Of a stretch of DNA of 64,000 nucleotides, positions 16,501 through 22,500 are shown in pieces. This DNA comes from Escherichia coli (GTDB taxonomy: Bacteria > Pseudomonadota > Gammaproteobacteria > Enterobacterales > Enterobacteriaceae): the NCBI RefSeq assembly GCF_017348835.2, contig NZ_CP071375.1; one strand, written 5' to 3'. Made by a program: the position numbers. Each line of letters begins with the position of its first letter. Position 1 is the stretch's first letter.

Positions 16501-19500
16501 GCTTCGGGCTGTTTGCGCATTGATGCTGAGATACGCTTCCAGTCTTCGCGATCCTTGTCGATAACCTCATTTGTCGCCCAGCGATGGATGGTACCGTCAA
16601 TGTTTCCTGCATCCACATCACCGGGCCAGAGGGCGCAGGCCAGTTCATTGTCGAGTGTTTTCCATGTCTGTTTGTATTCGCGGCGAATGGCAACAGTGAC
16701 AGCCCCGGTTTTTTCAGCAGCGTTTTCAGTGTTCTGTTGGTTGACTCTGGCGCGGGTGAGATCAACAACAGACGTGTATTTTCCGGTTTCCTTGCGTTCA
16801 CCTTCGCGACGTTTTTTCCAGATGCGCATCTCTGCCTGAATTTCAGGCCATTTAGCGCCAGGCTCACATTTATGCTTAACCCACCCGATGGCATGCAGTT
16901 TAAGTTCAGGATACATGGCGTTAACTTCTGGCATTTTCATCAACGCTTCAACGATATGTCCGCCGAATGTTGCCATGTCTTCCTGTAGTAATTCCTGTGC
17001 GCTAATCACCATATCAACGGTGATGTTTTCGCATGTGTCGAATTTAACCAGGACTGCGTTCTGTACTTCAGGGGACAGCTTGTCAAAATTGACGTTCATC
17101 GGATCGGATTCTGGTTCGACCGGTACAAAGGAAGCTGACTCCTCATCCCAGCGGTTTTCCTGCATATATTCGGTATCCCAGGAATCGAGGGCAGGGCGGG
17201 GTATGCCGGGTTTATCCTCGCAGACAATAAATTTATAAGCGCAGTCCTGAGCTGCCGGGAATTGCTCCAGAAATTGCCAGTGAAATTTTGCGCGTGCGCG
17301 ACGCTCATCACCGGCTTCAATGGCAGTGGCCACCGCAACAGCGCTATCTTCTTTTATGGCCTGTTCGTCAGGAATAGCAGCGCAAATAAAGATTTTACTC
17401 ATTGTGTTTTAACCTCATTACAGATTTAAGGGTGAACAAATCCCTGCCATTGCTGGCATATAAAAATGAAACCGGATATTAATTACGGTGCTGTTTTAAA
17501 GTCCTGCCGGTATTTCGTTATTATTAGTGTGAGTAGTTTTATCTACCGGATAACAGTTACCGGGAATTTTTTGTTCTGCTGCTGCAGCCATGCATTCTTT
17601 CATTGAACCGTATAAGCCAGTCACCAGCTCAAGAGATTCGCCGGAAACAAGATAAACTGTCAGAACGAGTGCAAATGTTGTATTCATTGTTTATATCCTT
17701 TTTGCAGCAGGTCCAGACGAGCCAGCATTGAAGGAATGCATACTTCATTTAACAGGTCCTGCTCGAGTTTTCTCTGCTTAATGGCGTCTTCAATAAATGT
17801 TTTGTCTCCAGTGATAACGCCAATTTCGAAACGAAGTTCAGACGTGCTGGCATTACATGATAACTTTTCCATTATCGCGTCCTCAACAATGAATTTTGTG
17901 ATGCGGTGCCTGGTGCCTCCAGGTGACGTTAACCAGTTAACAATTAACGCCGGATACAGAGCATTCTCGTTACTCAGCAAATGACCGCTTTACCGATTTA
18001 ACTGTTCCGCGTGCGCTGAGCCGCATTCACCGCATCACAAAATTCACTTTTAAAAAAGGGCGGCAGAGCAGTCACGGAGTAAAACTGATACCGCCAAATG
18101 TCACCAGAATATTGATAACAGAGGGCGTTGCAGCGGGGTTGTCACTTAAGCGTATGGTCAACCTGACAACCCGGTGTCCTCAACGGGGAAAGAATAACCC
18201 CGCCATACTTACCGCCGCGCCATTTCGCGGATTGCCACAACCGGAAGCGCACGGTCGAATTAAATTTAACGACGGCTCTAAGGGAGAAGGACTTCGCCGT
18301 GCACTTTCGTGTTATGCCCTGACTTTTCAGGGATATATCCTTTCAGTAAACTGTCAGTGCCGGATTCTTATCTGTGTCCGGCGCACGACCACACGTAGCA
18401 GCGTGTTGGTCTCCATTTTTAATTCAGCCCTTAATGGAGGATAAAATGCCAAACAAACCATGCCCTGCCTGTAACGCTCTTTCTGGCTTTTTAGAGAAGG
18501 GCGGTTATTACATTTTTAACTGTCCAGAACATGTTGAATTTCATATATCAAAACTTGACAGTATCATTACAAAGCCAAATCAGTATCAGTCTGATTTACT
18601 GAATAAAGAGTTAAACGCCGCCCGAGATTAAGGGCGTAGTGGCCCATTAAAAATATTGCAAAGACCAACTATTGTTGAACTGGATTAAACCAGTAATTCT
18701 CTATTGCTCTTATTGTTACCATCGGATGATTGCCGGGGGTTATTTTAAGTTCGGGAGGAAAAGGCTCTCCATCAGCAGCCATCATTGAGTATGTGAAATC
18801 CGCCGACGCAGTCCCTTTCATGATAATTCCGAATTTTTCAAGTAATGAGAGCAGTTCCGGTAATCCTGTGTCATCTGAATAACTTTCCTCATAGAAAGAA
18901 GCGATTGCCGCAGGAGATGACAGTTCTCGCTCTGCAATTTTTTTGTAGTTTTCCAGAGTTCTTTTTTTGAATACTTTTCCTCGACATGAAAACCCATCAC
19001 CGAGGCAATCCGCTTTGCAGTTTCTTCAGTATTCTGGTTGTTTGTTACCGAAACAGAGTACAATCCGGTAAACGCATCGCGCACATTACGAGCCATATTA
19101 TCAATGTATTTCTTCGTTGCAGATTCTAATTCAACTTCGTTCAGACGTTGGTGAAGTGCATGTGCTGCAATTTCCTGGATTTCTTTTAGTAAATCTTTAA
19201 ATTCCATCTTTAACTCCGTTAGTCGTTAGATTTTGCCGAACTGGAAAGCGCCTGTTTAAACTCACTGAAGCTGAGAGCTTCCTCGCCTTCGGCAAGGCCT
19301 TTGAACCGCCCCGGGTTTCCTGGAGAGTGTTTTATCTGTGAACTCAGGCTGCCAGATCATTATTTCCGATGGAAGCATAATAAGCTTTTTCTGCTTCTGC
19401 CGGAGGAATATGGCCCAGCCTTTCCAGCAATCGTCGATTGTTATACCAGTCCACCCACGTTAGTGTGGCCAGTTCCACTTCTGCACGGTTTTTCCAGCTC

Positions 19501-22500
19501 TTACGGTGTATTACCTCCGCTTTGTAAAGACCATTGATGCTCTCAGCCATCGCGTTGTCATACGAGTCGCCAGTACTCCCTGTTGATGCCAGTAATCCGG
19601 CTTCCTTAAGCCGCTGCGTGTAGGCCAGCGATACATACTGAGAACCTTTATCACTGTGATGGATTGTGCCGGACGGCCGACGGGCCCACAACGCCTGCTC
19701 CAGTGCATCCAGCACGAATGTTGTTTCCATGGATGATGAGACCTGCCATCCCACGATGTATCCGGCGAACACATCAATGATGAACGCCACATAAACGAAG
19801 CCCTGCCATGTGCTTACCCAGGTAAAATCAGCCACCCACAACTGGTCTGGACGTTCTGCCACGAACTGACGGTTTACGCGGTCGCATGCGGCAACGGCTT
19901 TCCGGCTGACGGTAGTGCGGACCTTTTTACCCCGGAGAACACCGGCAAGTCCCATAACTGCCATGAGACGTGCCACAGTGCATCTGGCCACTCTGATACC
20001 TTCCCGTAACAACTGACGCCAGACTTTACGCACACCGTATACCTGGTGATTTTCATCGTATACGCGCTGTATCTCTTTCTTCAGCCAGTCATCGTGCTGC
20101 GCACGGGCACTGCGTTTATCCGGATGATGTCGCTGTTGCTGACAATGGTAATACGTTGACGGGGCAATATGCAGTTCGCTGCATACCGGTCCGACCCCGT
20201 ACTGCTCACGCAGCTTATCCAGCAGTGGCATCATTTTTTCCAGAGGCGGTCGAACTCCGCCTTCGCAAAATAAGCGGAAGCCTGGCGAAGGATATCGTTA
20301 CTGCGGCGCAGTTCACGATTTTCACGTTCCAGCTCTTTCAGACGCTGACGTTCAGCGGTGGTGAGTCCACCATCACCACTCCCGGTATCCCGCTCATGCT
20401 GGCGAACCCAGACACGCAGAGTCTCCGGCGTACAGCCAATCTTTGGGGCAATGGAACAAATTGCCGCCCACTGTGAGTCATATTCATCCTGACTTTCCAG
20501 AACCATACGAATCGCCCGCTGACGGACTTCGGGGGAAAAACGAGTATTTTTAGTCATCCTGTTTACCTCTTTCTCAGGGAGTTTAGTCTCCAGGATTTCC
20601 GGGGCGGTTCACTTCGAAGTATTCTTCGTAAGCCTTTTCCATGATTGTGTCGAAATCCATATCACTCACCTGAGTTTCTTTCCAGCCAGCGACGGGCACC
20701 ATTTTCGGTTTTAAACGTTTTGCTTTTGGTATACGTCATCGCGGTGAATGTACCGTCCTGGTTGGGAAACACGCCGTACACCAGAGATTCGTTGTTGCCA
20801 AGATCGATAGTATCCATGTTGACCTCATTTCCCCTTAACGCCGGGTAGCGGAACAAAAACCTGCTGCATAGTTATTAAAGTTGAACCCTGCCGTCATGTT
20901 CATACGCCTCGGGCTGGCTACTTACCCCCTGACCACTGCTTGGTAACTCGAAGTATTGCCCGGCGTTCTGTGGGGCGGGGTGGGTGGTTGGTGTATGTAA
21001 TCTACAATTAAAAACTGTTTTGTGTCAACAGTTTTTAATTGTTGTTTTGGGCAAAAAAATCCCTCGAAAGAGGGAGTATGAAAATTGTTCAACTCAGATA
21101 GAGAAGGGAAATTGTCGCCGAGAATGTGTCACGCTTACAATCTCAATGCTTGAAGCAGCTACTCTGTACAGGATTATGTAGTTAGGGTGGGTCACGATCT
21201 CTCTCAATCCAGAAACCCGTTCGCTTGGTGGATATAAGTACGGATGCTCAGATAGAGGTAATACCGATGTTTCAATGCGTATTTTTAGTCTACGTGCTGC
21301 CGGTGGGTTCTCCTTGGCGATGTAAGTTATGATCTGGCGCAAATCATCGCGAGCAGACGGTAGCCATAAAATGGGTAACATTACTCGCTCTTGTTAGTTA
21401 CAGCAATTTGAGCAATAAGATTTTCCATTTCAGCCATTACCTCGTCATGTGGAATTGCGGGGCGAGTGTCTGCAAGGCTTGACGTTACTTTAGTGCGCAA
21501 CCATTCGTTGTAACTGTTTTCTTGTTCGGTAGTTTCGAATTCTGAAACTATCGGAGAAAGGGCTGTACCCATGGCATAACTCCTCTTCTTGTACTGTGGT
21601 CACGCCCGGCGGCTTTTTTGTGCCGCCAGCCACCTAGCAATGGTTTCTTCCATTGATTTTTTCTTGTCTTTGATTTCTTGAAGCATTTTTTCTTGGTCTT
21701 CCTCAGGAAACGCACTAAAAGCTTGGAGCAGTTCGCGTTGGCGAGGACCAATTTTCATCGTGTCAGGGGTGAAAATTGGCTCACACTCTTCAGGAGGCAA
21801 TAAAAACCAATGCAATGGATGCCCTGAAACCTCAACCAGTTTATCCAAACTTGAGGCTTTAGGTGTAGCCTTACCGCTGACCCATTGTTGAACAGTTTGT
21901 TGTGTCACACCAATTCTACGGGCAAGCTCAGCCTGGCTCCATCCAGTTTCCTGAAGAAGCTTGCTGATTCTGTACATAGATACTTCTAGGGCGCTCATCA
22001 TTATTCAATTTTACAGGTAAATACTGTTAAAAGCATCACAATAAAAAACTGTTGATTGCATACAGTTTTTTATTGTAGTCTTTGCTTATAGTTTTTAGAG
22101 GAGGGCAAAATGCTAGATAGCACTCGCGAAAAAATTAGGCAGAAATACACTCAGGCTGAAATAGGTCGTTATATGGGGGTCGCTCAACAGACTGTTTGGC
22201 AATGGTTTAGCTTTGGCGTTCCCCCAAAGCAGGTAATTCCGTTATGCCAACTAATGAAGTGGGAAGTTACCCCGCATGAAATCCGCCCAGATATTTATCC
22301 TAACCCAACCGACGGTTTACCTGTTGGATGTAAGGTTAACACATCAAATGCGCCGGAGTTGATTCATGAAAATCAAGCATGAACACATCCGCATGGCGAT
22401 GAATGCCTGGGCGCATCCGGACGGCGAAAAAGTACCGGCTGCGAAAATTACCAAAGCGTATTTCGAGCTGGGAATGACGTTCCCGGAACTGTATGACGAC

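Follow-up and report, generated by a model that had tools for sequence, protein, structure and literature searches.

The stretch of DNA analyzed here (the window, 64,000 nucleotides (nt) of Escherichia coli contig NZ_CP071375.1, assembly GCF_017348835.2) carries an insertion sequence (IS) of the IS629 group, within the IS3 family, that lies inside a small acidic open reading frame (ORF) of a prophage. From its sequence, this interrupted ORF is identified as ydfB, a named gene occupying the second position of what reads as a dicBF-type operon. The features present at the insertion site are the following, with coordinates in the window and protein lengths in amino acids (aa):

19302..20611, minus strand: IS629-group element, copy 1, recognized by its length, inverted repeats, ORFs and ALIL pseudoknot
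20557..20231, minus strand: orfA of IS copy 1, an ORF of 108 aa
20234..19344, minus strand: orfB of IS copy 1, an ORF of 296 aa
20276..20160, minus strand: ALIL -1 frameshift pseudoknot (Rfam, 121.5 bits)
19299..19301: CTT duplication on the ydfB 3' side, read from the sequence
20612..20614: CTT duplication on the ydfB 5' side, read from the sequence
20612..20660, minus strand: 5' fragment of ydfB (codons 1-16 plus one base), read from the sequence
19219..19301, minus strand: 3' fragment of ydfB (codons 17-42 plus stop), without a start codon of its own, read from the sequence
20660..20583, minus strand: 25-aa ORF formed by the ydfB 5' fragment running into the IS (translation)
28033..29342, plus strand: IS629-group element, copy 2, recognized by its identity to copy 1

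Copy 1 is exactly 1310 bp long. Its terminal inverted repeats are imperfect, both ends opening with TGAACCGCCCCGG and matching at further positions after it, and it is bordered by a 3-bp target-site duplication, CTT on either side, in agreement with the 3-4 bp expected for IS629. The two ORFs overlap at a run of six A residues, and the ALIL frameshift pseudoknot scores far above the Rfam gathering score of 50. Furthermore, in the colinear record of strain PE164 the Prokaryotic Genome Annotation Pipeline (PGAP) labels the IS as an "IS3 family transposase, programmed frameshift". In comparison with the element annotated as IS629 in the phage record LC567828, copy 1 is identical at 1256 of 1310 positions (95.9%), that annotation being another submitter's and not the ISfinder reference.

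These properties are those of the IS629/IS1203 elements of enterohemorrhagic E. coli (EHEC) prophages, which likewise measure 1310 bp, carry orfA and orfB with a -1 frameshift and an ALIL pseudoknot, generate a 3-bp duplication and target a prophage accessory gene, as exemplified by rem of phage PPompW_EH2201 (target-site duplication TAA). The element described here differs from annotated IS629 by its identity of about 96% and by its ydfB site, which is known in one other complete genome. IS629 insertions in genes of EHEC-type prophages are commonplace.

Removal in silico of the IS together with one CTT yields a 129-nt ORF of 42 aa plus stop, whose product is MDFDTIMEKAYEEYFEGLAEGEEALSFSEFKQALSSSAKSND. 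A first-pass annotation of this DNA had proposed that the IS splits a small ORF and that its flanks can be rejoined, and this is confirmed, with the sole precision that the 43 codons it counted correspond to 42 aa and a stop for the same product sequence. The reconstructed product matches YdfB of E. coli K-12 (b1572) at 41 positions over the full 42 residues, is identical to the PGAP "protein YdfB" (WP_000344963.1) encoded by the uninterrupted locus of strain 2011C-4251, and matches phrog_2061 in PHROGs (E=3.5e-27, "unknown function"). Moreover, a single nucleotide separates the ydfA stop from the ydfB ATG, as in K-12. This ORF, to which the first-pass annotation could assign no function, hence has a name; as to the function, we found none, since no Pfam family (even at E<=10) or NCBIfam family was retrieved and a Foldseek search against the PDB gave no match at E<=0.001. 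These same searches leave unsupported a reading of YdfB as an EF-hand protein, suggested by its acidic loop and its LSFSEF motif, and YdaG of prophage Rac was rejected as a YdfB homolog. In the literature, ydfA, ydfB and ydfC are described as small proteins of unknown function (PMC5069750), and ydfB figures among the candidates for H2O2/HOCl resistance of an ASKA screen (PMC8228696).

Structure prediction, which the first-pass annotation had put forward as a check, gave for YdfB an AlphaFold model with a helix (residues 3-17), an acidic loop (18-26) and a second helix (27-39) at a predicted local distance difference test score (pLDDT) of 85, a helix-loop-helix fold without significant PDB match. 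The insertion point, residue 16/17, coincides with the end of predicted helix 1 and lies within the conserved core of the protein. What remains of the product is a peptide of 25 aa, made up of 16 native and 9 IS-encoded residues, which cannot form the helix-loop-helix unit because the IS cuts it at residue 16/17. At the position of the 3' fragment, PGAP calls in PE164 a "protein YdfB, incomplete, missing N-terminus". At the sequence level, ydfB is demonstrably destroyed by the insertion, and ydfA upstream and dicF and dicB downstream are demonstrably intact.

The spread of the intact allele was surveyed in 5426 complete E. coli genomes. In 449 of them, a 300-nt segment spanning the reconstructed junction is matched without interruption over 80% or more of its length, the identity being 100% in O157:H7 strains. 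The ydfB-ydfA segment is matched in about 3600 genomes, and most of the matches sampled cross the insertion point without interruption, with other genes downstream. Over 3688 bp, the reconstructed locus differs at 3 positions from the uninterrupted one of E. coli 2011C-4251. Within the set, a single further genome, that of the pig isolate PE164, has the identical insertion, and the window is colinear with it over 50 kb at 99.88%. Outside E. coli, homologs of exactly 42 codons are found in prophages of Citrobacter, Cronobacter and Salmonella, and the conserved core of the protein comprises Y11, E12, Y14, F15, E20, E23, A24, S26, E29 and F30. Pairwise ratios of nonsynonymous to synonymous polymorphism (pN/pS) range from 0.18 to 0.71 for this very short gene, and the evidence, modest but consistent, agrees with ydfB being under purifying selection. 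The two expectations that the first-pass annotation had attached to its reconstruction, namely that an uninterrupted homolog exists and that the frame is conserved, are thereby borne out, the former by the 449 genomes with the same context and the 3600 or so with ydfB-ydfA, and the latter by the 42-codon homologs of three other genera and their pN/pS values. Phage records cover the region poorly, the best match reaching 39% coverage at 89% identity.

Many NCBI entries named "protein YdfB, partial" start at residues 16-18, which is the site of the IS insertion. They are represented by 6-57 contigs each, some having a K-12-type C-terminus, and others end at residues 23-28. These entries may correspond to IS junctions at contig edges or to mosaic recombination boundaries inside ydfB. 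In some Citrobacter and Cronobacter prophages, ydfA is absent and ydfB comes first after a conserved leader (...GCGTTAAGGGGAAATGAGGTCAACATGGAT). The ATGGAT start is common to ydfA and ydfB, and one 68-aa database protein represents a read-through of the leader into ydfB, which suggests that ydfA can be lost or gained through recombination at the shared ATGGAT start.

The genes that accompany ydfB are listed below in the order in which they would be transcribed, together with one ORF on the opposite strand:

20662..20817, minus strand: ydfA (DUF1391), intact, first gene of the operon (Pfam PF07151, E=3.3e-28; 51/51 to K-12 YdfA)
18669..19207, minus strand: frameshifted gene for a 179-aa protein (phrog_1363, unknown function), recognized by homology and DNA alignment
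18446..18631, plus strand: antisense 61-aa ORF between the 179-aa gene and dicF (phrog_10133, E=7e-48)
18058..18109, minus strand: DicF small RNA (Rfam RF00039, 77 bits for a gathering score of 48, E=2.9e-15; 51/52 to K-12)
17684..17872, minus strand: dicB, cell-division inhibitor of 62 aa (Pfam PF05358, E=3.7e-38; PGAP; translation)
17496..17687, minus strand: ydfD-like gene (DUF1482), 63 aa (Pfam PF07358, E=2.8e-19)
14931..17402, minus strand: RecE-like exonuclease of 823 aa, next gene on the same strand (ORF; annotation of the intact locus)

By gene content and order, the locus is assigned to the dicBF-type early-left operons, with a PL-like promoter followed by ydfA, ydfB, the 179-aa gene, dicF, dicB, the ydfD-like gene and the recE-like gene. 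The host prophage is classified as lambdoid, integrated beside yccA and endowed with an immunity region of the PaaR-PaaA-ParE / YdaS-YdaT type. The placement of the region in the early-left (PL-type) part of a lambdoid prophage by the first-pass annotation holds. Its description of a small operon fares less well: the transcription unit is indeed an early-left operon but is neither small nor anonymous, given that it continues to DicF, DicB, the YdfD-like protein and the RecE-like exonuclease.

The closest known system is the dicBF operon of the K-12 prophage Qin (ydfA-ydfB-ydfC-dicF-dicB-ydfD-ydfE), which displays the same order of ydfA, ydfB, dicF, dicB and ydfD on one strand and the same position downstream of the immunity repressor. 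YdfA (51/51), YdfB (41/42) and DicF (51/52) are nearly or fully identical between both loci, and for DicB and YdfD the Pfam families are the same. Apart from the IS in ydfB, two differences emerge from the comparison. Whereas Qin has ydfC between ydfB and dicF, the window has the frameshifted 179-aa gene and the antisense 61-aa ORF, and the 129-aa product of the former gives no meaningful alignment with K-12 YdfC. Furthermore, Qin relies on DicA and dicBp, while the locus described here has a PaaR-like repressor with its own operator, the homology to K-12 beginning about 45 nt upstream of ydfA. As regards the antisense ORF, its product has a CPAC...CPEH (CxxC...CPEH) motif and is possibly a zinc-binding protein; its transcript and that of the operon would be convergent.

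Upstream of ydfA lie a promoter and an immunity module:

20999..21042, minus strand: PL-like promoter embedded in a perfect inverted repeat, a putative operator (promoter scan, 10/12 matches)
21075..21060, minus strand: terminator-like hairpin after parE (terminator scan)
21094..22001, minus strand: immunity module upstream of PL (Pfam and PDB matches)
22001..21600, minus strand: PaaR-like helix-turn-helix (HTH) repressor, 133 aa (Pfam HTH_3, 2.3e-12)
21572..21381, minus strand: PaaA-type antitoxin (Pfam PaaA2, 5.6e-19; PDB 3zbe (PaaA2), 1.4e-20)
21381..21094, minus strand: ParE toxin (Pfam ParE_toxin, 2.9e-17; PDB 5cw7 (ParE2), 3e-36)

The module has the composition that defines PaaR-PaaA-ParE systems, an HTH regulator preceding, in one operon, a PaaA-type antitoxin and a ParE toxin, the last two being paralogs of, and not identical to, the crystallized PaaA2 and ParE2 of O157:H7. 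The PL-like promoter is made of a -35 box TTGACA, an 18-nt spacer and a -10 box TAGATT, and the inverted repeat in which it lies has 15-nt arms of sequence ACAATTAAAAACTGT, reported by the scan as a 16-bp stem. Promoter and repeat together form a 41-bp module (ACAATWAAAAACTGTTGA...ACAGTTTTTWATTGTAG) that occurs exactly twice in the window, at 21002..21042 (minus strand) and 22038..22078 (plus strand), for a chance expectation of zero. The second occurrence lies in a PR-like divergent position, between the repressor gene and a ydaS-like gene, and the two modules probably serve as operators in this type of immunity region. In prophage CP-933P of O157:H7, the promoter PL933P is located downstream of the toxin-antitoxin (TA) genes, has operators in common with PR, and undergoes roughly 100-fold repression by PaaR2 or YdaS (PMC8630535, Jurenas et al. 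2021). The window shares with CP-933P a CI-like repressor, a PaaA/ParE pair, divergent YdaS/YdaT and a second promoter with PR-type repeats downstream of the TA genes. It differs by its repeat, ACAATWAAAAACTGT, where the published operator consensus of CP-933P is GTTTAGTAA. Repression, known for CP-933P, would apply here by analogy and by virtue of the shared module, the PL-like promoter being presumably controlled by the local repressor.

In K-12 Qin, DicF derives solely from RNase III/E processing of a transcript that starts upstream of ydfA, with no internal promoter detected (bioRxiv 10.1101/2023.04.14.536235). A promoter scan inside the operon of the window yielded only weak internal matches. 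Because of this dependence on the upstream promoter in K-12 and of the weakness of the internal matches here, dicF, dicB and ydfD would depend on transcription crossing the IS. Likewise, from the gene order and the lack of a good internal promoter, we infer that DicF would be processed here from a single polycistronic transcript.

The explanation that we consider highly probable for the locus as a whole is the insertion of an IS629/IS1203-group element into codons 16/17 of ydfB, in a dicBF-type early-left operon, as part of the decay of the prophage. The 1310-bp element would have transposed into these codons and duplicated CTT; a separate A8-to-A7 frameshift, common in the same prophage type, would already have inactivated the following gene, which encodes the 179-aa protein; and dicF, dicB and ydfD would now be separated from their promoter by an additional 1.3 kb, downstream of an orfB that only ribosomes undergoing the frameshift translate. 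Approximately 890 nt of orfB require the -1 frameshift to be translated, which argues for some polarity. On this basis, expression of dicF, dicB and ydfD after derepression may be partly reduced, without being abolished, an outcome toward which we lean slightly.

Several observations weigh against this interpretation, and most of them concern polarity. The IS has the same orientation as the operon. From 20611 to 18110, the sense strand shows no terminator-like site, and a Rho-loading scan of the same interval returned no 80-nt window with a C/G ratio of at least 1.5; the sense RNA of the IS is G-rich (C 0.24, G 0.29-0.30). The PL-like promoter is probably repressed in the lysogen, and the insertion may then ordinarily have no phenotype at all. 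In addition, the protein lost, YdfB, has no assigned function, and the very name IS629 is borrowed from the annotation of another submitter. The first-pass annotation had considered it probable that the insertion both disrupts and polarizes the operon: the disruption stands, and the polarity becomes a qualified expectation for a co-oriented IS with no sense terminator and a G-rich RNA.

The same orientation, the lack of a sense-strand terminator-like site in the IS and the G-rich sense RNA, which is a poor substrate for Rho, would equally fit an element that is neutral or even activating, owing either to read-through from PL or to read-out of a transposase promoter from the right end of the IS, with ydfB as the only loss. 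In the read-out variant, the 179-aa gene, dicF and dicB would receive a low, repressor-independent expression. This alternative is plausible although, on balance, doubtful. Indeed, the approximately 890 nt of orfB are expected to be largely free of ribosomes, the search for an outward promoter-like site gave nothing at the right end of the IS or at the junction, and constitutive expression of DicB/DicF is toxic in K-12 (PMC5069750).

IS3-family elements with an ALIL pseudoknot were also encountered at other sites between ydfA and dicB, in 19KM2326N, KE47, the O103:H2 FWSEC0007 group, E110019 and E300082, the insertion of the latter being accompanied by a deletion that reaches the paa genes. 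An orientation bias among these insertions was rejected, as the search joins same-strand pieces only and such a bias is therefore an artefact. The presence in other complete genomes of IS3-family elements at different ydfA-dicB sites is what would be anticipated if the insertion had been selected because it attenuates a toxic operon, insertions in the ydfA-dicB leader then being a recurrent, adaptive means of silencing dicBF. We regard this scenario as improbable, considering that about six events were counted among the 5426 genomes, which hold about 28,000 IS629-like places, that the exact insertion is found in PE164 only, and that the prophage decays by other routes too, namely the A7 frameshift in the window and, in PE164, a terminase that is itself frameshifted. 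The broader proposition that joins both ideas, of a recurrent and selected detuning of dicBF operons by IS elements or of a rewiring of dicF/dicB by IS629 to low constitutive expression, appears to us just as improbable.

The gene that follows ydfB deserves separate consideration. The ORFs of 129 aa and 50 aa overlapping by ATGA, reported by the first-pass annotation as a coupled pair of genes, are present as described, but they are best read as a single gene. A homology search with the 129-aa ORF retrieved proteins of 177-186 aa that match its first 92 residues or so and whose C-termini correspond to the 50-aa ORF, and in two other E. coli prophage loci an intact gene of 179/180 aa fills the corresponding place between ydfA and dicB. 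Alignment of the DNA revealed as sole difference in frame a run of eight A in the intact genes for seven at 18938..18944 in the window, and insertion of one A at this position restores the 179-aa protein. The pair is accordingly reassigned, on the strength of these alignments, to one 179-aa gene broken by a 1-nt deletion, the ATGA overlap being a by-product of the frameshift. For the function of the 179-aa protein, Pfam, NCBIfam and PHROGs returned only families of unknown function, and a family of 208-214 aa named "Ybl81" resembles it over the N-terminal 85 residues or so only. The structure prediction suggested earlier for the 129- and 50-aa proteins was run on the restored protein and, with an alignment of 25 sequences, resulted in an unusable model (pLDDT 47).

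The 129-aa allele is frequent among prophages of this type, where it forms a cluster of 100 members and is annotated in all four of the intact loci inspected, the 50 downstream codons remain open, and the zero frame ACA AAA AAA TTG contains a formal X XXY YYZ heptamer at which a -1 shift would restore the 179-aa frame. Such features could speak for a functional arrangement, by -1 frameshifting or slippage on A AAA AAA or by ATGA-coupled translation of the 50-aa ORF. We nevertheless find it quite unlikely. Diverged homologs (65-88% identical) have an in-frame A8, which means that the shift site is not conserved, and no stimulatory structure lies downstream of the A run (fold z-score 0.22), two facts that led us to reject a programmed -1 frameshift at the junction. 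As a separate protein, the 50-aa ORF has a single near-identical entry as homolog and no phrog or Pfam match, and it is not called by PGAP.

Copy 2 of the element differs from copy 1 by 4 nt (1306 of 1310 positions identical, 99.7%), is located 7.4 kb away in inverted orientation and has a target-site duplication of its own, CCA on either side. Since both duplications are intact, the 7.4-kb segment that separates the two copies and contains the genes for immunity and replication has kept its orientation since the insertion. Just past copy 2 are a sok RNA (29489..29655, Rfam, 102 bits) and hokD. That the IS at ydfB is an assembly artefact arising from a mis-joined repeat is scarcely credible even for a multicopy element with a second copy this close, in view of the perfect 3-bp duplications at both copies, CTT/CTT and CCA/CCA, and of the same insertion with the same junctions in the independent complete genome of PE164.

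Further along the window, at 35490..36006 on the plus strand, three tRNA genes precede a match to the small RNA STnc100 (138 bits), as is typically seen in the late-regulatory region of lambdoid phages of the Stx type. In the colinear prophage of PE164, a SASA-family esterase is found there, with no stx gene, and this prophage is defective because its large terminase gene is frameshifted.

All the parts of the locus are of known kinds, namely the IS629-group element, ydfA and ydfB, DicF, DicB, YdfD and the PaaR-PaaA-ParE region, and overall the case is one of routine decay, in which IS insertion and slippage in a homopolymer erode an accessory region of a prophage. The interrupted ydfB allele is already annotated in a public genome, that of PE164, and none of the papers in the library searched connects IS629 with ydfB, dicF or dicB. 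The annotation of the region is to be corrected in three respects: the acidic ORF is YdfB, the coupled pair is a single frameshifted 179-aa gene, and the operon holds DicF and DicB. For the strain, it follows that its copy of the dicBF-type operon has lost ydfB and that the coupling of the DicF/DicB module to its promoter may be partly lost, which may be of relevance when DicF dosage is compared among pathogenic E. coli, as these carry several such loci. Together with relatives having an intact locus, the strain offers a natural, isogenic-like pair in which the role of YdfB or the polarity of IS629 could be addressed.

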